Position numbers and translations under genes: made by a program. Under the pieces are notes generated by a model. The model saw nothing but the letters and a program-made list of their open reading frames with translations, did no database searches and was not told the origin of the DNA. DNA of 64,000 nucleotides. Source: Eledone cirrhosa (lineage: Eukaryota). The stretch spans positions 263,934,001 to 263,998,000 of the forward strand of contig OZ024740.1 of assembly GCA_964016885.1 (NCBI GenBank). Reading direction: 5' to 3'. This document shows, piece by piece, positions 1,767 through 58,630 of the stretch (positions are counted from its first letter, which is position 1; the number at the start of each line of letters is the position of its first letter).

Positions 1767-4700
1767 GAGAAAGGAGAAAACCCCCCTCCTTCCGAAACCG
1801 GCTCCACTGCTACCAGCAACAGGGCAGGCGGCAAGCAGGAAGGATAGGTACGTGGCACCCATACCCACGCCACGGAAATCAAGAACAGCAGCAGCAGTGG
1901 AAGTGTTAACAACAACAACAGTAATACCAACTGCAGCTGCAACAGAGATTCCACTGCAAGCGTCACCAACAAGAACAAGTGAAAGAGTGCAGCTGGTATC
2001 CCTCCCCGACCTCACAGAATCGGGCATGGAGTTTGAGGTGGGAGAGGGATGGCAAAAGGTCGCAAGAAGGCACAACGCAGAACCAGCGCATCGTCACCTT
2101 CGAAAAGGGAGGAAAGTAATGAAAAAAAGGGTAAAGGCTACTGCAAAGAGACTTACAGCAGCAACACCACCAACACCATCACCACCCACACTAGCACCAC
2201 CATCACCACCGGCGGCAACCCCACCGCCAACAACAACAACACCTTCAACAACACCACCACAAGCACCAACATCGCAAACACAACAACAAAACACACACAC
2301 CCAGCAACAACGACAAGAAAATAGCAGAACCACACCCCACCCCCAGAAAAAGAAATGCACAGCAATTTATACACACAACAAGAAACTAATGACTTACATA
2401 ATTGAACACACAGACATTTCACAGCACGACTACATAATACCAGCACCAATCAAAACACCAATGAACATAAGACTGGTAAGAATATCACAGAACAATACAC
2501 AAACATTAAAATGAAATTGCCCAACGCAGTTGGTGATTTCAGAGACCTAGGAGGGACACACAACCGGAGAGTATACTCGGATATACTCACAGAAGATCCG
2601 ACGACCAGCCGAAGGGACGATTCAACGGTCCCTTCACCAGACGGTCAAGGTTAGTGATCCTTTCTCACTTGCTCCGTTCCTCACCCAACATAGCCGTATT
2701 CAGGATCGCAAGTGTAAACGTGCGTGGCTTGAGCCCGGTTTGGAAGCAGGGTCATTTGCTTTACGACCTCAGGTCACTAAACATAGATGTGGTGGCCATC
2801 AGCGAGACGAGAATCTCCGAAACACAAGCCTTCGCACCGATCTTCGACGGTTATGAGATGTACGCATCTCTGAACCGTCCGGGAGCGGGGGGGGGGGGCG
2901 GCGGAGTGGCTGTGTTGTTTCGGAAAGGGTTGTGTCTCGCCATACGGACCATCTTCCTGGACCCAGAAGGTAAGTCGGTGGTGCTGCACGTAAGCGGCAC
3001 CGAAGGCAATGCTTTCAGGCTAGTAGCCGTCTATGCCCCGACAGGGACAAGACGGCAAGATTTCTTTAGACGACTAGAGACCTTTCTTGGAACGACCCGC
3101 TCTTTAGTGTTAGTGGGCGACTGGAACGGTATCTTGGATGCACGCTGGGATTATGTGTGGCTAGTGGATAGGGGATGAGGGTGCAAGAGCCTCACCAACC
3201 TGCTCAGAGGTTTTGAGCTGTCTGACATGTTTCGACTGGATCACCCGAATGTGCCAATGAGGACAGGAACAAACCGCATCGGGTCATCCAGATCGTATCT
3301 CGATAGTATTCTGCAGAAAAATAGATAAGGCTAGTATAAGTTGTCCACAATTTAAAATAGTCGACTACGCACACCACAAATTTGTGATGTGTGGGATCGA
3401 CTTAGACAGACTCCACTGACAAGGACCCGGTTACGGGAAGCTGAACGCGTTTTTCCCGGCGTGCAAAGCATACAGAGACTGGATTAGCGTATTAGTTAAG
3501 CGGGCGTTGACGGGAGCGGTCGTCAACAACAGGTGGTGGTTCGCCCTGAAAAGGGCAATTAAAGTAGAGTCGATTAGGTTTGGCAAAGGACTAGTGATAG
3601 AGGAAAATAGAGTAGAGGGAGAGCTTGTCAGAAATCTAGAGGAGGCGTTTGGGACAGGCATCGCAACCGACTTGCTTGCGGCGAGATTGGCACTAGACCA
3701 ATTCTTCAACGCAAAACACGAAGGCTGCGTTTTCAGAGCTAGAGCGCGCGCTCTGAAACACAAGGGGACAAAAGCCGTCCAATGGGCCCTGGCAGCAGAG
3801 GCTCGACGTGGCAACAAAGCCACAATTCGGTCTTTGTCTGACCAAAACGGGCGCGTGTTGCTTGAACACGAGCAGATGTGTGAAGCTTATCAGCAGCACT
3901 TTGCTGAACTGTTCGGGAGCAGCGGTTGGCCGGATGGGGTATAGACTTCAGTGCATACCTCGATGGACTGCCTTGGCTCTCGACGACCGCAGCACAGTAT
4001 TGCGAAAAGCCAATAACAGCCGGTGAAATACGGGAAGCGATAGCTGACTGCACGAGGAGTAAATCGCCAGGTTTGGATGATCTGCCCTACGAGCTTTATG
4101 CATTTATGCCAGACGTCTACTGCAACTGGCAGCAGAACGGGAGCATTCCTAGTTTTGTGGGCCGGAGAGCGGTGGCGCTGCTGAGAAAAGACTCGAACAC
4201 ACGCACTCGTTCAGTGTCCGATCATTGCTGACTTGTGGAGCTATGTCGAACAGTTGCTGTCGCGTGTAGGACTGATCCAGTTATCGACTGAGTTCATTGT
4301 GCAGATGGTCACGCCGTCTTGCTTAGAAGAGGAAGGGCAGGTGTTTTTCATCTGCCTGGTGGCCATGGCGAGAGAGGTTGTGTGGTGGACAAGTTTGAAA
4401 TGGATAAAGACAGATACTTTCCTCTTCGGCGAATCCCTAACTAGCTTTTTCAATTTTCACTTGAAGAGGAAAATCAGGGTGGAGAGGCAAGTGCTGCCTT
4501 CTAGCAAGTTTGTTGAAAGGTAGGTGAATGTAGCGAGAATGGTCCGAGTGAACGGGACCGCTCTGAATATACGCCTATAGTTTGAGAAATGGAAAAATTA
4601 AGAGAGGGCACTTGCCCTGGTGGTAAAGGTAGCCGTGATCTTTTGTGTCGTTTTCGCCACGAGCAACCCTCGGATTTTTCCCGCCTAGTGGGGAATTTTC

Positions 4701-4883: not shown

Positions 4884-6553
4884 GTTCTTTGAGTCACAGT
4901 TATCAATGTTAGTTAACTGGAAAGTTTGTTGAAATGAATATCAAGCCACTACCTGCAGCCTCAGATATTCAGGACGTATCGGAGAGTTCTTGCGGTTCCA
5001 AGCAAGCATACCCTTTGAAGTGTTCCAAAAAGCGGGGCTGGACTAATTTTCATTAACCATCCTTGGAAACTCTTGAGATAGTACCTAGTGCGTCTATGAC
5101 AATCGGGACGACCATGACTTCTTGACAGTTCCAAATCCTTTTTACCTCCAACTTTATGTCCTCGCATCGGTTAATTTTCTCCCTCTCCTTTTCTTGCACT
5201 CTCGTGTCAAATGGGCAGGCTACATCTACAATCAGGCACGATCTTTTTTACTTGTCCAAAACCATCAGGTCAGGCTTATTGTATTCTAATTTCTGGTCCG
5301 TCTGTATCCTAAAATCCCATATCACCTTCACCTGATCGTTTTCTATCACCGACTCTGGCTTATGCTCATACCACTTCATAGAATGTGGTAAATTGTTTAC
5401 TTTGCATAGCTGCCAGTGGATCACCCTGCCCATCACATCATGTCTCCAGCCTTTATAGTGAGTCTGGACTAGGTGTTTACACTCGGGTACAATGTGAGCC
5501 ACAGTCTCCTCTCTCTCTCCACAGATCCTACACAGTGGGCTAGCCTCCTACTTGTCAATATGGTGTTTCACTCACTTCGTTCTGAGGGCCTGCTCTTGCG
5601 CAGCTATTAGCATTCCTTCTGTAGCCTTTTTAAGGTCTCCTCTTTTTAACCAGTTCCATGTCTCTGGATCTCTAAATTCAGTTTTCTTAAAGAAGGTACT
5701 ATGAAGGTACTATGAAGGATTATTGTCCTCTCCTTCAGTACAATTTTGAACATTGGCTCCCTACTGTCAGTCACGTATTTGTACAGGTTGTTTTTCTCCA
5801 TCTGAACACAGTCCTCAGATCTATTTAAGTAGAGTCTATCGACATTACTCCTCTTGTGGAAGATGTTGTAGATAGCCAATAGCTTCCTAATCTTCCTATC
5901 CATTTCTTTTTGTTTAGCAACATTCCTCTTCAGAATTCCCGCACTGTACCTAATAATAGGCACAGCTCGGGAATCTACTGCACTTAAGACATTCCTACTA
6001 TTTAGATGTGATTTTAATACGCTCCTTACTCTCCTAATGTACTCAGATTTTATCAATTCCTTCATTTTGTTTGTCCTTAATGTCATCTGCCTCCAGAACA
6101 CCTAAATATTTGTATACCTCCTCAGTGTCAATTTCCTTTATCATCTCACCTGTTGGTACCTAGATTCCGTTGCTTCTGCTAAATTTACCCCTCTTCATCA
6201 CAAGGACTCCACACTAATACCAAATTCCATAGATATATCGTTGCTGAAAATACGGACAGTGTCAACAAGTACATACAACTCCTTCTCACTCTTCCCAAAG
6301 AGTTTAAGATCGTCCATGAAGAGGAGGTTGTTGATGTTAAGCACTCGTTTTCCCAAATGTATCCTGCTCTCACTTTTCGCAATATAACGGTCAGGGGCAT
6401 CAGGGCAAGGACAAACAGCAGAGGGGGCAAGCTATCTCCCTGGAAGATACCTCTCTTGATCTTCACGCCTCCCAAGGATTCTACACCCGATGTTGACTCT
6501 GTTACCCAGGACATCATACTTTTGCTCAACAACTGTGTAATGTTATCTGCCAC
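4884..6553 (-). mobile_element. 5'-truncated, decayed copy of the R4/Dong-like RLE element (family A)
   Basis: GIFQGDSLPPLLFVLALMPL and WDFRIQTD...NKPDL; same 3' UTR as 55861-55934; tail in (TAA)n at 4863-4883; several internal deletions. Confidence 0.93.
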
Positions 6554-38329: not shown

Positions 38330-42230
<3,901 letters not shown>

Positions 42231-42446
42231 TTGTGTGTGTGTGTGTGTACATGTAAACATATATACATACATGCATACATACATATATACATATTCATAC
42301 ATATTTATGTTAGTATCGTTAATGTATTTTGTTTTGTTTTTCTCTTTTCTGATCGTAACTTGAGTTGATCGATTGTGAAATGCGCTTCACGTTTGAATAT
42401 AAATATATTGATGTTATCATACTTCGTTTCTTCTTATCATATATAA

Positions 42447-42536
<90 letters not shown>

Positions 42537-43104: not shown

Positions 43105-43138
<34 letters not shown>

Positions 43139-43140
43139 AT

Positions 43141-43178
<38 letters not shown>

Positions 43179-44826
43179 ATGTATGTGTGTATTTCTGCAT
43201 ATGTGTGTTTCTGTATGTGTATGTGTGTGTACTTTTCTTAATTTTTTTATTCCTTTTGATTTATCAGAGTTTATTTCCTCTTTTTTACTTTTTAAATTTA
43301 TTATTATTATGTTTTTTTTTTTGTTTTTTTTTAAAACACCCGGACGTGTGGAAAATAATTTTTGTCAACTAATTGAAAACAATTCACCGTCACTTACCTT
43401 TCTCATCCCCGTCATATTTATCATCTTAATGTTTTGTCATACAGCAGAGCTGCCAATCTCTAAAAACCCAAACGGGGAATACAATGAAAAAAGGTGCCCC
43501 AAAAGAGGGAGAAATGAGATAAAAGGGGGAGATTTTGTGTTTTGAAAGCTATTTCACGAAAAACGTCTCTTTTCACCCCAAAATGGGTGGAAGATCACCT
43601 CGTTGGAGTTGACAACCTCATATATCTCTTTATATGACATTTCAACATGCTATAGATTCAATAACTCGGAATAATATAATTATAAAGCAATGTCGAATTC
43701 AAAGATTACTTGCAGAAATATTTTTCGTAACTATAAAAGGAAATTATTATGGTCAATTAATTCCCGAAATATCAAAAATGCAAATATTAATCCTCCTTCA
43801 ATATTTCCTGCTCAAGACCATATCTGATATGAAGTATTTTGCGAAAAATATTTTCACAGATATGGATATTAAAAGATGTGTTTACAAGAGTAGGCACAGA
43901 AGAGAAAATATTTATTTTAAAAAAAAACATACATAAACAAGAAGGAAACATACACTAAATCAAAACCTATAAAATTAATATATTTTACATTAATTGTAAC
44001 ATTATCGCATATAATTTACTTTTTCCAAAAATTTCATTGATTAAATTTCCTTGGAAAAATTTCTGTTCCCTGATTTAAAAGTGTCGAAAATAATTATTAA
44101 TAAACAATGCATAAAAATAAAGGAGCAAACAATATTTATCATTACCATGAATGCTTTGTTTGCTAATTGAGAATTTAATAACATTCTCTTAAGAAACTAG
44201 ACACAATTTTGATCATTTTTGTTTGATAGCCGATAATTAGAATGGTAGGTTTCAGTGGGAACACAAACACGGAATTCCAAAAATAAAATGTTATTTTGTC
44301 CAAGATATCAGTGTGATATTCGATATGTCACTTTGTTTTTAAAGAAGAGCTGGGGATACACCCAGACAGATTTTTAAAAAATGAAGTATCACAGATCAAA
44401 TCAGATTTAATTAATATGAAATTTTCATCGATAAAACTAGAGTTGAGGGTAGGAGAAAAAGGAATGTAAATAATTGTAAAATTAATAATAAAAAAAAAAA
44501 ATAACAGTTTGAAAGCAACTTTAGGATAATATCTAACATAATTTTTTCTGTTCCAATAAAACTGATGTATATCGAATTTAAATTTGATTGCAATATATTA
44601 TAATGGAACATTTAAATATTATTTATGCATCATATATACGCACATATACAAACATTCTAATATTTTGTGCGCACTATTGGAGATGGATGGATAGGGGAAT
44701 TATCACAAATATCTACTTAATGATACGTAAAAATTCAAAAAGTATTATATAGCCACCTACATTACGATATCTTTTTTTATTACATCTACAACAGGCAGGT
44801 ATATTCTTATTTTTATTCGTAAGCGG

Positions 44827-44930
<104 letters not shown>

Positions 44931-44943
44931 ATGTGTATGTGTC

Positions 44944-44976
<33 letters not shown>

Positions 44977-44996
44977 ATATATATGTGTGTGTGTGA

Positions 44997-45032
<36 letters not shown>

Positions 45033-45034
<2 letters not shown>

Positions 45035-45230
45035 CGAAGGAAATGTGGTAAGGAACTAGGTGGACCATAACGCACCAAAGTACTCAATAATTAGGGTAGT
45101 AGAGTGGATAATAGGAACAAGTAGGACCCGACGGCTGAGCTGAAGCCGTTTCGACGGCTAATTCTGGACTCTGGAGTCCAGAATTAGTCGTCGAAACGGC
45201 TTGAGCTCAGCCGTCGGGTTCCTACTCGTT

Positions 45231-45235
<5 letters not shown>
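45033..45235. repeat. Fold-back palindrome (45111-45235) containing the 3' half of a hammerhead
   Basis: Centre ggactc-tg-gagtcc; arm reads gtcgtc-GAAA-cggct/tgagctc/agccg-TC-ggg; (TA)n on both sides. Confidence 0.85.
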
Positions 45236-45295
<60 letters not shown>

Positions 45296-45654
45296 CAAAA
45301 TAAGATGCTGACGTTACATATATCGTTTAATCATAATAATTATTTCCACGGTTCTCTATGCAAACGAAAGGTCCTTCATGCATTTGCGGTTGATTATGAG
45401 AGTGGTTTCTTCAGATGAAAATCGATATATTTGATATGTCGCTGGCAGGAAAACACACATCCTAATGCATGTGCGCCCAGCATACATAGGAGTTCCTTGA
45501 AGCGTTTGCCAGCCGTCGTGTTTGTTAGAAAAAGCTATCAACGAAAAAAGACGAAAAGAAGGAAGAACTGTGTGCAACCAAATCCCAGTAGACAGTTGAA
45601 GCAATAAATGGGGCTCTGAGGGAGGTGGGGTATATAGTTAGTTGACAACCACCT

Positions 45655-52289: not shown

Positions 52290-55200
52290 GGGGCCCTTTC
52301 TGCCCGTGTGTTTGTTTGTTTATGTGTGTCCGTATACAGCGTGGTGATAATGCCACACAAGGGCCAAGTGGGATGGCGGATCCACAGATGGCTATGTAAA
52401 CATACATTCGCCAATCCTCGATAAGAGTGTTTAAATATCGAACATAAACAGTTCGAATAACGGTGAAATGGAGACTAGAACGTCATGTGACAGACTCTCA
52501 CCCAACAGGTGCCCCCTGGCTCAGCAGCAGGAACCTGACTGTCAACCAAATACTGCTGATGTTGGAGGAAGAAGAAGAAGGAAAGGGGCCAGAACCAACT
52601 GGACGAAAGAATTGAATAGAACTGTTATGCAATGCTACCTGAAAAGTAACCCCAAGGAGAGGGGCTACAGGAGACGGATGCATAACATCTGGAACGAGAT
52701 TGGTTTATTTAAATTAGATGAACAAAAATTGGCCGGGCAGGCTCGGGTAATAAGAACTAATGGGTGGATAAGCGAGCTGGAACTGGAGGAACTGAGCAGA
52801 GAGAATGGCTTGGAGATGGCGGGTGTAGTATGCCAGACAAGCGAGCCGGCGGGAAATGAAGGTGAGGAGGTCCTGAGAACGGAGGAACCACCCGAAGCAG
52901 ACAATGATCTGAATACTGAGATAAATAATACCTGGAACAGAGATACGGCCACTGAGGAGATGAATGCTGACGGGCTAGGACAAGATTCGGTTGACATCCT
53001 AAATTTAGTGGTAGATGAGTTGAACAATGATAGTGGGAGACCTATGAACCTAAGATTTGTAGACAGGAAAAAGTTAAAAGAAACAACAGCTAAGGTAAAC
53101 AAAGTCATCCCATACCTTGAGGCGAGGAGTCTTCACCAGTGCAACAATATCCTCAAAGCAACAGCAAATACGGTGAGGAAACTACTTGGTATAAAAGCGA
53201 GAGGAAACAACAGACAAGAAAGAGCAGAGCCGTGGTGGAAGAAGCGACTGAGTGGGCAAATCGGGGAAATGAGAAATGACATAGGAAAGCTTGAGTCACT
53301 ACTGAATGGGACACTAAAAAACATAGGCACTAAAAATAGACTGGAAATAAAATACAAAACTAGGAGTAAAAAGCTAAATATTATCATAGAGGAATTGAAG
53401 CAACGCATTGTAGCAAAGAGTGCCAATATCAGGCGATACGAGAACAGAGTCAGTCAGTATAAACAGAACCGCATGTTCGACAACAACCAGAAGATGCTGC
53501 TTGGACAGCTTGAGGGGAAAGAAAGAGGCAACGACTTGATGCCTGGGGCGGAACAAGCTAAAACATTCTGGAGAGGAATATGGGAGCAGGATGTTAGACA
53601 CAATGCCCAGGCAGGGTGGATTGAGACAGTACAGAGGGAGATCGGTGAGCAGGCACAGCAACAGACTGATTTGAGTATCACAGTTGAAACTCTTAAGGGG
53701 CAAGCCAAAAAACTAACCAACTGGAAATCACCAGGCCCAGATGGTGTGCAGGGGTATTGGATTAAACATTTAACATCCCTCCACCCGAAGCTGACGGCCA
53801 TGTTCAATGACTGCTTGGTGTCGGGTGAGGTGCCAGAGTGGTTGACAAAAGGTACCACAGTTCTGATAATGAAAGACCGAATCAAGGGTAATGATGTTAC
53901 CAACTATAGACCTATCACATGTCTGCCCGTAATGTGGAAACTGTTGACGAGCATTGTGTCTGAGGAAATCTACCATCACCTCCACACAAACAACTTGTTG
54001 CCGGACGAACAGAAAGGATGCCGAAAGAAGTCACGTGGTACAAAGGACCAGTTGCTTATTGATAAGATGGTAATGGGGAATTGCAGGAGGAGACACACTG
54101 ATCTTGCCATGGGATGGATAGACTACAGAAAGGCATTTGACATGGTGCCTCATTCCTGGATCACCAAAAGCCTGGAGATCTTCAGTGTGGCAGATAACAT
54201 CAGACAGTTGCTGGGCAGGAGTATGGGGTCCTGGGAGACAGAGTTGACATCAACTGGAGTATCCTTGGGAAGCGTGAAGATCAAGAGAGGTATCTTCCAG
54301 GGAGATAGCCTGTCCCCTCTGTTGTTTGTCCTTGCCCTGATGCCCTTGACCATTATGCTGCGAAAAGTGAGAGCAGGATACAAGTTGGGAAGGGGAGAGC
54401 TTACCATCAATCACCTCCTCTTCATGGACGATCTTAAGCTCTTCGGGAAAAGTGAGAAGGAGTTGGATGTGCTTGTTGACACTGTCCGTATTTTCAGCAG
54501 TGATATATGTATGCAGTTTGGTATTGGTAAATGTGGAGTCATTGTGATGAGGAGGGGTAGGTTGAGCAGAAGTAACGGGATCCAGATACCAACAGGTGAG
54601 ATGATAAAGGAAATTGACTCTGAGGAAGGATACAAGTATTTGGGCGTTCTGGAGGCTGATGGCATAAAGAACAAAAAAATGAAGGAATTGTTAAGAACTG
54701 AATACATTCGGAGAGTAAGGAGCGTATTGAAGTCACATCTGAACAGCAGAAATGCCATAAGCGCAGTAAATTCCCGAGCTGTGTCTATTATTAGGTACAG
54801 TGCGGGAATTCTGAGATGGAATGTTGCTGAACAAAAAGAAATGGATAGGAAGACTAGGAAGCTATTGACTATCTACAACATGTTCCACAAGAGGAGTGAT
54901 GTCGATAGACTCTACCTAAGGAGATCTGAGGGTGGAAGAGGTCTTATCAGCATAGAGGACTGTGTTCAGATGGAGAAAAACAACCTATACAAATACGTGA
55001 CCTATAGTAAGGAGCCAATGCTCAGAGCTGTACTGAAGGAGGGGACAGTAGGCCAGGGGATATCCAAGGAGGAAATAACATCAAGGAGGAAGAGCAGCCT
55101 TAAGGGAAAATCCCTTCATAGTACCTTCTTTGAGAAAACTGAATTTAGAGATCCACAGACATGGAACTGGTTGAGAAGAGGAGACCTCAAAAAGGCTACA

Positions 55201-55934
55201 GAAGTAATGCTAATGGCTGCGCGGGAGCAGGCCCTCAAAACGAAGTGGTTGAAGCACCATATCTACAAGGAGGAGGCTAGCCCACTGTGCAGGATCTGTG
55301 GAGAGAGAGAGGAGACTGTGGCTCACATTGTGTCCGAGTGTAAACACCTAGCCCAGACCCACTATAAGGGCTGGAGACACGATGTGATGGGCAGGGTGAT
55401 CCACTGGCACCTGTGCAAAGTAAACAATCTACCACATTCTGAGAAATGGTATGAGCATAGGCCAGAGGCGGTGATGGAGAACAGTCAGGTGAAGGTGCTG
55501 TGGGATTTTAGGATACAGACGGACAAAAAACTGGAACACAATAGACCTGACCTGGTGGTTGTGGACAAAGAAAAAAGATCGTGCCTGATTGTGGATGTGG
55601 CCTGCCCGTTCGACACGAGAGTGCAGGAGAAGGAGAGGGAGAAAATTAACCGATACCAGGACCTAAAGTGGGAGGTGAAAAGGATTTGGAACTGCCATGA
55701 AGTCAAAGTGATCCCGATTGTCATAGGCGCACTGGGGACTATCTCCAAAGGTTTCCAGGGATGGTTAAAGAAAATCGGCCCCTTCACGCTTTTTGGAACG
55801 CTTCAAAAGGCATGCTTGCTTGGAACGGCAAGAACCCTCCGATACGTCCTGAATATCTGAGGCTGCAGGTAGTGGCTTGATATTCAATCCAACGGACTTT
55901 CCAGTTAACCAACATCAATGACTGAGATTCAAGG
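52290..55934 (+). mobile_element. Full-length R4/Dong-like RLE non-LTR retrotransposon (family A)
   Basis: About 180-bp 5' UTR, single intact ORF, 74-bp 3' UTR, (TAA)n on both sides as known for Dong elements. Confidence 0.93.
52468..55860 (+). CDS. Reverse transcriptase / CCHC zinc knuckle / restriction-like endonuclease polyprotein (1130 aa)
   Basis: KSPGPDG, NYRPITCL, IDYRKAFDMVPH, GIFQGDSLSP, FMDD, YKYLG, GGRGL; CRIC..ETVAHIVSEC; RHD, RPDL..DV..EKINRY. Confidence 0.97.
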   Translation: METRTSCDRLSPNRCPLAQQQEPDCQPNTADVGGRRRRKGARTNWTKELNRTVMQCYLKSNPKERGYRRRMHNIWNEIGLFKLDEQKLAGQARVIRTNGWISELELEELSRENGLEMAGVVCQTSEPAGNEGEEVLRTEEPPEADNDLNTEINNTWNRDTATEEMNADGLGQDSVDILNLVVDELNNDSGRPMNLRFVDRKKLKETTAKVNKVIPYLEARSLHQCNNILKATANTVRKLLGIKARGNNRQERAEPWWKKRLSGQIGEMRNDIGKLESLLNGTLKNIGTKNRLEIKYKTRSKKLNIIIEELKQRIVAKSANIRRYENRVSQYKQNRMFDNNQKMLLGQLEGKERGNDLMPGAEQAKTFWRGIWEQDVRHNAQAGWIETVQREIGEQAQQQTDLSITVETLKGQAKKLTNWKSPGPDGVQGYWIKHLTSLHPKLTAMFNDCLVSGEVPEWLTKGTTVLIMKDRIKGNDVTNYRPITCLPVMWKLLTSIVSEEIYHHLHTNNLLPDEQKGCRKKSRGTKDQLLIDKMVMGNCRRRHTDLAMGWIDYRKAFDMVPHSWITKSLEIFSVADNIRQLLGRSMGSWETELTSTGVSLGSVKIKRGIFQGDSLSPLLFVLALMPLTIMLRKVRAGYKLGRGELTINHLLFMDDLKLFGKSEKELDVLVDTVRIFSSDICMQFGIGKCGVIVMRRGRLSRSNGIQIPTGEMIKEIDSEEGYKYLGVLEADGIKNKKMKELLRTEYIRRVRSVLKSHLNSRNAISAVNSRAVSIIRYSAGILRWNVAEQKEMDRKTRKLLTIYNMFHKRSDVDRLYLRRSEGGRGLISIEDCVQMEKNNLYKYVTYSKEPMLRAVLKEGTVGQGISKEEITSRRKSSLKGKSLHSTFFEKTEFRDPQTWNWLRRGDLKKATEVMLMAAREQALKTKWLKHHIYKEEASPLCRICGEREETVAHIVSECKHLAQTHYKGWRHDVMGRVIHWHLCKVNNLPHSEKWYEHRPEAVMENSQVKVLWDFRIQTDKKLEHNRPDLVVVDKEKRSCLIVDVACPFDTRVQEKEREKINRYQDLKWEVKRIWNCHEVKVIPIVIGALGTISKGFQGWLKKIGPFTLFGTLQKACLLGTARTLRYVLNI

Positions 55935-56190: not shown

Positions 56191-58630
56191 CAGTTGAACA
56201 GTTGCGCTTGGCTCTAAGAAAAACCAGCAAATGGAAATCCCCAGGAAAAGACAAAATACAAAACTTTTGGATAAATGCCTTCACAGAGTCTCATGAGCTG
56301 TTAGCCCAACTTTACAATGAAATAGTTAAGGAGCCAGAAAAGATACCATCATGACTAGTTAACGGCATTACATTCCTGCTTCCGAAGAATGATGAGACAA
56401 ACAATCCCAAAAATTACAGACCGATAACTTGCTTGACCACAACGTATAACATTTTAACATCAGTCCTAACTGAATACACATATGACCACCTGATAACAAA
56501 TGACCTATTTCCCATTGAGCAGAAAGGGTGTAAACGAGGCTCATATGGCTGTAAGGATCAGCTTCTGGTTAACAAAATGATACTGGAAGATTGTCATAAT
56601 AGACACAAAAATCTATCGATTGCTTGGGTAGATTATAAAAAAGCATTCGATAGTTTGCCACACAGTTGGATTGAAAAATGTTTAGAGATTTTCAAAATAT
56701 CCCCCGTTGTCAGGAGGTTTTTGTTATTCAGTATGAAGACATGGAAAACGACACTCCTTTTGAATAGTGAAACAAAATCACTGGAAGCTGGAGATGTTAA
56801 TATTAATTGTGGAATTTTTCAGGGTGACTCTTTATCACCGCTTTTATTCTGCATCGCACTTATACAATTAAGTAAAATGCTCAATGAAACAAAACATGGA
56901 TATAAAGTCTATGACAAAACCATTAATCACTTGTTCTACATGGATGACCTGAAACTATTTGCAAAAAATGATGAACAATTGCAAAGGCTATTATCCACTG
57001 TGGAGCAGTTCATTGATGACATTAAAATGGAGTTTGGACTAGATAAATGCGCCAAAGCAACGTTCACCAGAGGAAAGCTGCTGAAGAGTTCAGACATTAA
57101 TCTTGATCGGGGGAACGTGATAATAGAACTTGATCAAGAAAAAACTTACAAATATCTAGGTGTTTGTGAAGGAGACGGAATCAAGCACTCGACAATGAGG
57201 GAAAGGATAAGGAAGGAATGTTACCGCAGAGTAAGAGCAATCTTAAGAACGGAATTGAATGCAAGGAATAGGATCGATGCCATAAACAAGCTTGCCATAC
57301 CAGTAGTAACCTACAGTTACAATGTCATCAACTGGTCAAGCACAGAGATCCGTAGGCTCGATACAAAAATTCGAAAATTCTTAACCATGCACAGAATGCA
57401 TCACCTTGAGGCAGATATAGATAGAACATATCTCCCTAGTAAAGAAGGAGGACGTGGGTTAATCCAGTTAGACATTGCATTGAAAACTGCAACAATTGGA
57501 TTATCTACATACCTAAGGGAATCACATGATTGGATGATCAAACTCGTTTTGAAACACGAAAGCATCAAAAGATCATATTCCATTACAAAAGATGCACAAA
57601 GATACAGTAATGGACTACAAATTTCAGAAGTCCCATTTACTGCTGAAATGGAAAACACAGCAAAAGCAAAGCAGGTAAAAGTAACTGCAAAGAAAGAACT
57701 GCTACAGAAACTGGCTAAGAAATAAAAAGAAAAGCCTCTGTATGGAAAATACCCAGAGCGAGCTAACAGTCCTGATGTTGACAAAACTTTAACCCATCAG
57801 TGTTTGGCATCTTCTGGACTGAAATCGGAGACTGAAGGACTGATTATATCAGCACAAGATCAGTGTCTGCCAACAAAAAATTACCAAGCCAACATAATAA
57901 AAAATGGATGCAGCCCATTATGCCGTGTATGCAAAAAACAACCAGAGGCCATTGACCATATAATTTCAATGTACAGTCCTATAGCTCCAACCGAATACCT
58001 AAACAGGCATGACAGATCTGCACAATACATACATTGGATAATGTGTAAGCATTTTGACCTGCCCCATCAAAAGAATTGGTGGGAGCATCAACCACCTCCC
58101 ATACTTGAAAAGGATCACGTCTCAATCTTGTGGAACTTTAGCATCCAAACAGACCGAAAATAGATGCAAATAGACCTGATATAATATTGAGGGACTTTAA
58201 AAAAAGGGTATGCCTGCTAATTGATATGTCTGTTCCAATAGACAAGAATGTATCTATAAAAACATTTGAAAAATTGAGCAAGTATAAGGACCTGGAGATA
58301 GAAATTGGAAAAATGTGGACATTGAGAACTAAAACAATACCAGTGGTTGTGGGCGCTCTGGGAATGATACCTAAGGGGTCTAATGATTACTTATCGCAAA
58401 TCCCAGGAAACCCGCGTATAGGAGAAATACAAAAGATAGTACTAATGGGAACTGCCCATATACTAAGGAAGATTCTGTCAATATAAGTACATCACAAGTC
58501 TAAACACTAAAGATGCATGTGTGAGTATGTGTGTTCTTTCTTGAACATGGCGGACCTTGTTGTCTCTTGAGGTCACTGGTTGTGACATGGTGATAACTCG
58601 TATGAACATAAAGCAAGATAAATGCAACTG
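56191..58630 (+). mobile_element. 5'-truncated RLE non-LTR element, second R4/Dong-like family (B), with stop codons
   Basis: KWKSPGKD, VDYKKAFD, GIFQGDSLSP, FYMDD, CRVC..EAIDHII, RHD, RPD, IDMSVP..EKLSKYKDL; (TAA)n on both sides. Confidence 0.93.

Follow-up and report, generated by a model that had tools for sequence, protein, structure and literature searches.

A fold-back repeat family in the TA repeats of Eledone cirrhosa, possibly a hammerhead-less passenger of a Penelope-like element

We analysed a stretch of 64,000 nucleotides from the genome of Eledone cirrhosa (contig OZ024740.1, positions 263,934,001 to 263,998,000, assembly GCA_964016885.1; hereafter the window) that contains a palindrome with a one-sided tail at positions 45035-45232. 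The initial annotation of this DNA had attributed the structure to a nascent cDNA that snapped back on stem II of a hammerhead ribozyme and primed itself. The palindrome that it recognised is genuine. Rather than the trace of one local event, however, it is one copy of a dispersed, non-coding family of about 200 bp with more than 10,000 copies. The reading that we favour, and to which we give about even weight, is that this family is a non-autonomous passenger of a (TA)n-targeting Penelope-like element (PLE), both arms of the palindrome being rebuilt at each insertion. Folding back during reverse transcription, primed from both target strands, is the most likely origin of its shape, and the result for the hammerhead as the cause of the turn is negative.

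Tail and palindrome together form a unit of 198 nt that meets (TA)n at both ends, as seen by direct reading and in the Tandem Repeats Finder (TRF) rows (Table 1), with a single extra A at 45034 between the left (TA)n and the tail. In these respects, a longer tail on one arm and both ends abutting (TA)n, the element is as first described. Repeat finding delimits arms of 46 nt (45126-45171 and 45174-45219) that are 96% complementary and lie 2 nt apart, and a BLAST comparison of the unit with the window returns a self-inverted match of 91.3% over 127 nt; the full arms measure about 59 nt each, and the palindrome 120 nt in all. When folded as RNA, these 120 nt reach -106.6 kcal/mol, compared with -37.75 +/- 3.97 kcal/mol for 200 shuffled sequences (z -17.3; 0/200 as good). 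Judged from the PLE comparators described below, whose 3' ends adjoin (TA)n, the RNA-sense strand would be the minus strand. The outer edge of the tail then corresponds to the distal, long (L) 3' end of the RNA, ..CCTTCG/TTA(TA)n, where the slash marks the junction, and the untailed arm stops at a second, proximal and short (S) 3' end, ..GTTCC/(TA)n, at an internal TATTA with which the tailed arm continues. These two alternative ends lie 78 nt apart.

Table 1. Parts of the palindromic unit in the window, and loci of the two comparator families elsewhere in the genome
Feature	Position	Strand	Remarks
Left (TA)n microsatellite	44952..45033		TRF row; borders the tailed (L) end as target or junction repeat
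One-sided tail of 78 nt	45035..45112	-	Kept in all aligned copies
Tailed (L) arm	45113..45171	-	GAAA-hairpin-GUC on the minus strand at 45130-45152
Centre 'tg', in neither arm	45172..45173		Hypervariable position among copies
Untailed (S) arm	45174..45232	+	Stops at GTTCC/(TA)n, the proximal (S) end
Hammerhead-like 3' half	45193..45215	+	GAAA, 6-bp stem, 7-nt loop, GTC
Right (TA)n microsatellite, untailed end	45233..45294		TRF row
True-hammerhead family loci	L031-L042, e.g. C4:309200894-309200938		RF00163
Autonomous PLE family loci	L161 C1:145.87 Mb; L162 C5:100.72 Mb; L165 C1:438.61 Mb		Reverse transcriptase (RT) + GIY-YIG open reading frame (ORF)
Autonomous PLE family loci, continued	L168 C1:172.78 Mb; L169 C4:348.64 Mb		RT + GIY-YIG ORF

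When the 198-nt unit was compared with its own 3.0-Gb genome, 6,088 first-look candidates were returned, 40 of which were scored. Thirty-nine of these places, the window copy itself included, match the unit at 93-100% identity over 193 or more of the 198 bases, and the fortieth covers bases 30-198. Exact-anchor patterns, on which all of our genome-wide counts are based and which make them lower bounds, detect 14,822 palindromic cores. Fold-backs with one tailed and one untailed end between (TA)n repeats (LS) number 10,403, those with two tails (LL) 104 and those with no tail (SS) 81, at least 3 of the 50 listed SS sites not being clean copies. The copies are dispersed and not tandem; homology between loci ends at (TA)n, and the outer ends are constant, the tail being confined to one side. 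All 30 copies fetched by similarity have (TA)n plus an A before CGAAGG on the tail side and TA repeats on the other side, repeats that could be a pre-existing target or have travelled with the element. For detailed comparisons we used a sample of 80 copies, comprising the loci of the first 79 LS rows on C1 (0.57-49.3 Mb) and one further row, of which 74 carry at least three TA units plus an A at the tail end; the right-hand (TA)n was demanded by the search pattern in this sample, so that the unbiased evidence for both flanks comes from the 30 similarity-fetched copies. A longer parent extending beyond the L end was not found genome-wide: the 118 places with a base other than T next to this end are nearly all one-base variants of (TA)n, and the remainder have nothing in common. 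The notion that the tail is a decayed third copy of the arm was dropped, since its best match (AGGAACCAGGTGGACC against AGGAACGAGTAGGACC, 13/16) was equalled by 32/300 shuffles.

Three properties of the family bear on how it is made. The first is the pairing of its ends. If each fold-back chose its two ends independently, at the 11:5 ratio of tailed to untailed ends found among single-armed copies (see below), about 43% would be LS, compared with the 98% observed. The second is the likeness of the two arms within a copy. Four polymorphic arm positions define subfamilies among the 80 copies, and at these diagnostic positions the same change is present in both arms in 128/135 variant cells, transversions (G>C, T>A) included, whereas the other arm positions show 6 symmetric cells versus about 112 one-armed cells. 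In the same sample, the arms of one copy differ from each other at 1.5/52 positions and the arms of different copies at 3.4/52. Because the diagnostic substitutions are mirrored in both arms, we infer that every insertion produces both arms afresh from a single template. Arms of different subfamilies are combined in some LL and SS copies.

The third property is the variability of the centre. Eight of the 80 copies are perfect palindromes, another 8 turn on a single central base, unpaired stretches of 2-29 bases separate the arms in 50, and 14 were left unparsed, while a second parser recognised 48 different centre strings in 64 copies, with recurrent types common to several subfamilies. The turn point slides along ..AATTCTGGACT.., and the longest arms go on as ..CATTT(T)-AGTCCAG... 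Ten of the 80 centres read GGACT-A(m)T(n)-AGTCC; m differs from n in five of them (A3T2, A3T4, A4T7, A0T4 and A0T1), as expected if two ends were A-tailed separately, and two have runs of at least 16 A or 18 T. Some centres also contain several switch-like duplications. Within the 80-copy sample, centres apparently tend to be long (GGACTAAA..TTTAGTCC) in subfamily A, which has GGGT at the four diagnostic sites, and mostly short, turning at CTG..GGAC, in subfamily B (CAAT).

The initial annotation predicted a non-palindromic parent with a CUGANGA box directly upstream of stem II. Single-armed copies do exist, yet not in the form predicted. There are 811 forward-strand matches in which the arm ends at most 14 nt after AATTC and is joined directly to (TA)5, compared with 92 forward matches for the next interval outwards, whose anchor excludes about 40% of copies; the corresponding reverse-strand count of 2,298 is inflated by overlapping matches. 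No abutting inverted arm was present at any of the 16 single-armed places that we fetched, 11 of which are tailed and 5 untailed, the latter (S-type) ending at (TA)n-AGGAAC. These copies begin at ..CTGGAC(T) (..AGTCCAG) beside (TA)n, about 19 nt upstream of the GAAA described below, and they contain no CUGANGA. Since they end preferentially at the usual turn point and display both kinds of 3' end, they point to a single-armed template with two start sites.

Two other families in the same genome display the same architecture. A search with the GIY-YIG profile returned more than 10,000 candidates genome-wide, and all of the 150 that were scored pass the Pfam cut-off. An autonomous PLE family (Table 1) encodes an ORF of 938 aa with matches to RVT_1 (E 2.1e-6, 28.0 bits, just under the Pfam cut-off of 29.6) and to GIY-YIG (28.3 bits, above the cut-off of 22.6). 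Two sites, 67 nt apart, serve as its 3' junctions with (TA)n, one being an internal TATATA that immediately precedes the start of the ORF and the other lying upstream of that; we counted 6,789 long (L) and 3,038 short (S) junctions. Head-to-head neighbours of this element within 5 kb comprise 27 LS, 2 LL and 0 SS pairs (100 L and 46 S ends, C1 0-47.6 Mb), and most are mini fold-backs that span only 131-364 nt. At one locus, L165, the PLE forms a fold-back whose arms measure 2 kb. The arm without a tail extends 27 nt further at the centre than its tailed counterpart, so that each arm holds sequence that the other is without and neither can be a copy of its partner. At L169 (around 6075-6200), a single (TA)n run terminates a PLE copy and also serves as the starting point of a copy of the palindrome family. 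The twelve best GIY-YIG loci (L082-L093) were also considered as partners and rejected, with no similarity to the element and no (TA)n-bounded ends seen on reading.

The other comparator is a non-coding repeat with a minimal type-I hammerhead, for which 18 of 74 scored candidates exceed the RF00163 cut-off, at 35-38 bits. It too has two alternative 3' ends, about 100 nt apart and both abutting (TA)n, with the complete hammerhead lying 62 and about 162 nt upstream of them. Among 12 loci of this family, L031 and L037 are perfect LS fold-backs (tail-arm/arm) with a complete ribozyme in each arm, and they turn 45-55 nt upstream of the ribozyme; L033 is an unequal LS pair in which the inverted copy reaches to within about 1-3 nt of the GTC cleavage triplet, on its upstream side. 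No PLE ORF was found in these loci (L031-L042). The (TA)n junctions, the two 3' ends and the LS head-to-head pairs of the autonomous PLE and of the hammerhead family are thus all like those of the palindrome family.

On the reading that we favour, the template would be an RNA of about 137 nt with only one arm, 5'-AGUCCAG..arm..tail-3', that terminates within or beside UA repeats. The RT/GIY-YIG endonuclease of a PLE would cut both strands of the (TA)n target, and each cut strand would prime cDNA synthesis on the RNA, one at the distal site to give the tailed end and the other at the proximal site to give the untailed end. The two cDNAs, sometimes extended by a few untemplated A's, would then be joined head to head near the 5' end of the RNA by a template switch, and the product would be tail-arm/arm' with a copy-specific centre. 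More tentatively, the >10,000 copies might constitute a natural record of PLE integration, in which a dimeric enzyme cut both strands of the (TA)n target and used, for each strand, one of the two start sites on a single short RNA; nearly every product would therefore combine a tailed with an untailed end around a newly formed centre.

Several observations weigh against this proposal. The family is no more similar to the terminal region of the PLE (local score 29) than shuffled sequences are (24.9 +/- 3.9; 56/300 as good), and its score against the 3' region of the hammerhead family is 19, versus 22.5 for shuffles. Since no similarity to either was found, the case for mobilisation by that PLE is one of shared architecture, and it is in this sense that the Penelope link drawn by the initial annotation holds. 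In addition, the tail of the family is 78 nt long, versus 67 nt in the genome's own PLE and 30-40 bp in the PLE literature. For two cDNAs to be copied from the same stretch of RNA, either strand displacement or a pair of RNAs of common source would be required, and a single-armed RNA is not readily accounted for when most loci are palindromic. For a published PLE in vitro, the start site was no different between the strands (Frangieh et al. 2024, PMC11167929), so that the strict coupling of one L with one S end is not explained by that work. The detailed sample is also limited to the first 50 Mb of one chromosome, and the counts rest on exact anchors. Finally, where the centre has unpaired bases, these extend the tailed arm more often (about 28 copies) than the untailed one (about 12; counted by eye), an excess that leads us to lean towards snap-back from a tailed cDNA in part of the events.

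The chief rival is accordingly a snap-back in cis that stops at the proximal site. Here a distal-primed cDNA would run to the 5' end of the RNA, fold back and extend on itself at each insertion; synthesis would halt at the proximal site and the end would be joined to the other (TA)n end via the internal TATTA. Such self-priming would account for the mirrored diagnostic substitutions, the copy-specific centres and the fixed LS form, as well as for the excess of centres that extend the tailed arm. It has moreover already been proposed for PLE inverted repeats, being inferred from palindromes at inverted junctions in the part of Arkhipova et al. 2013 (PMC3846280) available to us, and the suggestion of the initial annotation that it could explain inverted pseudo-long terminal repeats (pLTRs) is in print in that same source. 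We nevertheless consider it unlikely as the general explanation. A copy of a tailed cDNA cannot hold the bases that extend the untailed arm at about 12 of the 80 centres, 8 centres are perfect palindromes with zero loop, and centres of the form A(m)T(n) occur with unequal m and n. No reason is given for a halt exactly at the proximal site, and full snap-backs would yield LL or SS copies, each of which makes up only about 1%. A snap-back of one cDNA cannot by itself produce the commonest form, nor can it produce L165 at all, in which the tailed arm is without the 27 nt present in the untailed arm. Of the fold-back idea as first put forward, the turning back in reverse transcription would thus stand, in line with the mirrored arms and copy-specific centres, while the stem II trigger does not.

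Alternatively, the whole palindrome might be inherited, a full palindromic transcript with UA flanks being copied end to end while hairpin mismatch correction keeps the arms alike and the tip mutates fast through slippage and hairpin processing. This would explain the constant LS form with no need for a coupling rule, the flanking (TA)n could guide both junctions by homology, and palindrome tips are known hot spots. We regard it as improbable. Single-armed copies prefer the usual turn point (the 811 versus 92 forward matches) and occur with both 3' ends (11 L, 5 S). Indels as long as about 20 nt occur among the 48 centres in 64 copies, against a difference of only 1.5/52 positions between the two arms of one copy; furthermore, the same centre types recur across subfamilies, and the two arms of an LL or SS copy sometimes belong to different subfamilies.

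The remaining explanation that involves reverse transcription is the one closest to the initial annotation, namely a founder snap-back on stem II in the cDNA of a hammerhead-bearing PLE or retrozyme, with loss of the CUGANGA half at the turn and subsequent spread. Direct reading confirmed the sequence features on which it was built. On the plus strand, GAAA (45193-45196) is followed by the 6-bp stem acggct/agccgt (45196-45201 and 45209-45214) and by GTC (45213-45215), and the motif is mirrored on the minus strand; a GAAA box, a helix III closed by A15.1-U16.1 and an NUH triplet, all features of hammerheads, are therefore present in both arms. Hammerheads have a conserved CUGANGA box 5' of helix II. 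This box is absent upstream of the half motif on both strands of the element, as had been noted. So is a helix II hairpin within one RNA: the ..GCCGTC strand pairs only with the other arm of the palindrome, and neither a single arm of it nor the single-armed copies offer a stem II partner. A tie between the turn and stem II is thus contradicted by the element itself.

In line with this, a covariance search of the whole window with Rfam at gathering score gave zero hammerheads or other ribozymes, and a search of 44950-45350 at E <= 10 gave zero hammerheads, the only matches being mir-1258 and mir-297-type hairpin or microsatellite look-alikes, all below gathering score. The half motif is also common by chance. 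The pattern of GAAA plus a hairpin of at least 6 bp closed by A-U and followed by H occurs 7 times in the window, 2 of these being the palindrome and 5 lying elsewhere, and dinucleotide-shuffled 64-kb windows contain 1.45 each (29 matches in 20 shuffles). The single-arm RNA of the window copy folds no better than shuffles (z -0.10), and its minimum free energy (MFE) structure pairs GCCG..CGGC around a UCGAAA loop rather than forming the 'stem III' hairpin. The sequence concerned, GCCGTCGAAACGGC at 45186-45199, mirrored at 45146-45159, forms a small hairpin of GCCG/CGGC around TCGAAA, which overlaps and competes with 'stem III'. The right arm of the window copy reads GTCGTC at the first stem.

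A founder snap-back on stem II does have points in its favour. Both arms carry the motif intact, and a divergent subfamily (L081) has retained it as GAAAC-GGCC..AGCC-GTT. Its distances from the proximal and distal ends, 17 and 98 nt on the upstream side, are comparable to the 62 and about 162 nt found for the hammerhead of the sister family, and the hammerheads of a published PLE are near its start sites (PMC11167929). We consider this explanation very improbable all the same. A genome-wide search for CTGANGA 6-36 nt upstream of the family's GAAAC-stem-GTC gave 19 matches, all in different contexts, with no consistent parent; the longest arms run into ..CATTT(T)-AGTCCAG.. and not into a stem II partner, and the single-armed copies begin about 19 nt upstream of the GAAA. 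The chance rate and the 5 other instances in the window, the want of an Rfam match or of similarity to the hammerhead family, and the fold of the single-arm RNA all tell against it as well. Finally, the comparator fold-backs turn elsewhere, those of the hammerhead family 45-55 nt upstream of a complete ribozyme and that of the PLE about 2 kb in.

The GAAA-hairpin-GUC is then either a relic of a pLTR hammerhead or a product of chance. A relic is favoured by the placement of the motif a short way upstream of the two ends and by its persistence in subfamily L081; its chance rate, the lack of similarity to the true hammerhead family and the competing hairpin argue against one. We hold a hammerhead relic, which would be independent of the insertion mechanism, to be a serious possibility, if somewhat less probable than the contrary. 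In either case the motif is probably not a working ribozyme: judged from its sequence, a template that is without the catalytic CUGANGA box would not cleave.

A DNA transposon, that is, a miniature inverted-repeat transposable element (MITE) or foldback element with a Tc1/mariner-like TA duplication and a preference for TA repeats, would fit a short, abundant, palindromic repeat with TA on both sides, but we give it hardly any credence, since the outer ends (CGAAGGAAATG.. and ..CTACTCGTTCC) are not inverted repeats of each other, as the fixed termini named in the initial annotation as typical of such a transposon would be, the palindrome occupies one side of the unit only, the alternative ends are separated by 78 nt, there are LL, SS and single-armed forms, centres are copy-specific and some have A/T runs, and both the RT and GIY-YIG element and the hammerhead family show the same architecture. 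The flanks being TA repeats themselves, a target-site duplication of TA cannot be read.

The surroundings of the element consist largely of repeats. Three ORFs on the plus strand of the window belong to non-LTR retrotransposons: 52435-55860 (1,141 aa, RVT_1 and a weak zf-RVT), 56355-57725 (456 aa, RVT_1) and 2537-3178 (213 aa, an Exo_endo_phos endonuclease). Long (TA)n/(TG)n arrays occur every few hundred bases near the element (42132-42222, 42439-42530, 43124-43230 and 44850-44952), and the loci fetched elsewhere in the genome are likewise rich in (TA)n. At one of them, L011 (C13:42167940-42171138), the flanks beyond (TA)n are mutually inverted, ..CGTAAAAACGATGGTGTGTG(TA)n on one side and (TA)nCACACACCATCGTTTTTACG.. 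on the other, and the element may there sit in the microsatellite centre of another palindromic repeat. A tRNA-like repeat resembling a short interspersed element (SINE), with ..GAGTTCAAATCCCGCCGAGGT.. and ..GGGTAATTGCTGGCCTTGTGCC.., ends in or beside (TA)n at L005, L007, L035 and L084, and it often adjoins the palindrome, PLE or hammerhead families.

Together, the family and the autonomous PLE offer thousands of short, fully readable insertion products, and these obey three measurable rules: two start sites, near-obligatory LS pairing, and arms from a single source with a variable join. Should the more tentative reading, that of a natural record of PLE integration, be true, this would be the first described hammerhead-less, SINE-like fold-back parasite of a PLE, and the obligatory L-S pairing would be a rule at the level of sequence that goes beyond the in vitro work so far. 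The open-access literature that we searched yielded no account of a PLE passenger that is palindromic, lacks a hammerhead and lies in TA repeats, and three words from the family's GAAAC-stem have 0 occurrences in the portion of the supplement text of Craig et al. 2021 that was available.

The closest parallels are with PLE insertions. As far as the available portion of Craig et al. 2021 (PMC8557442) goes, these often have an adjacent inverted, 5'-truncated copy and a tail of 30-40 bp at one end, PLEs display a bias towards microsatellites, with Hydra-clade elements inserting into (TA)n, and the formation of tandem and inverted structures and the choice of microsatellites are named as an open question. 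Biochemically, a purified PLE protein, which is predicted to dimerise, cleaves both strands of the target and extends them, reverse transcription starts at two adjacent internal sites, the interval between them being the 'tail', and hammerhead cleavage is dispensable for insertion in vitro (Frangieh et al. 2024, PMC11167929). The palindrome family shares with PLE insertions the head-to-head inverted copies, the extension at one end, the two 3' ends and the insertion into microsatellites; it differs from PLEs in that it has no ORF or pLTR, a unit of only about 200 bp and no complete hammerhead. In more than 98% of its fold-backs a tailed end is matched with an untailed one; we found no statement of such a coupling for PLEs in the portions of the literature consulted. 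Insertion into (TA)n is also a feature of Hydra-clade PLEs. Hydra elements are reported, in the excerpts available, to have canonical hammerheads, whereas Rfam at E <= 0.01 detected none in the ten PLE loci L160-L169.

Animal non-LTR retrozymes have been proposed to be non-autonomous derivatives of PLEs (in the accessible part of Li, Clavereau, Pollet 2026, bioRxiv 10.64898/2026.07.22.740005). The palindrome family would resemble them as a short, non-coding passenger of PLE machinery with hammerhead-related sequence; however, retrozymes, as that part describes them, form tandem arrays with complete, active hammerheads and circular RNAs, while the family is dispersed and palindromic and has no CUGANGA.

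A further parallel is the twin priming by which L1 5' inversions reportedly arise, as Ostertag and Kazazian are said to have proposed in 2001. In both cases, both target strands would prime cDNA on the element RNA and the cDNAs would be joined inside the insertion. Twin priming of L1 inverts one part of the element, whereas in the family both cDNAs would cover the same stretch, and a true palindrome would result.

The family thus indicates that short palindromic repeats of MITE-like appearance with TA flanks can arise as retro-copies, a point of consequence for annotating repeats and for the question of how (TA)n-rich genomes originate. Like MITEs and foldback transposons, the members of the family are small, abundant and hairpin-forming, with TA at their ends; unlike MITEs, they have outer ends that are not inverted repeats, alternative ends, single-armed forms and centres with signs of reverse transcription.

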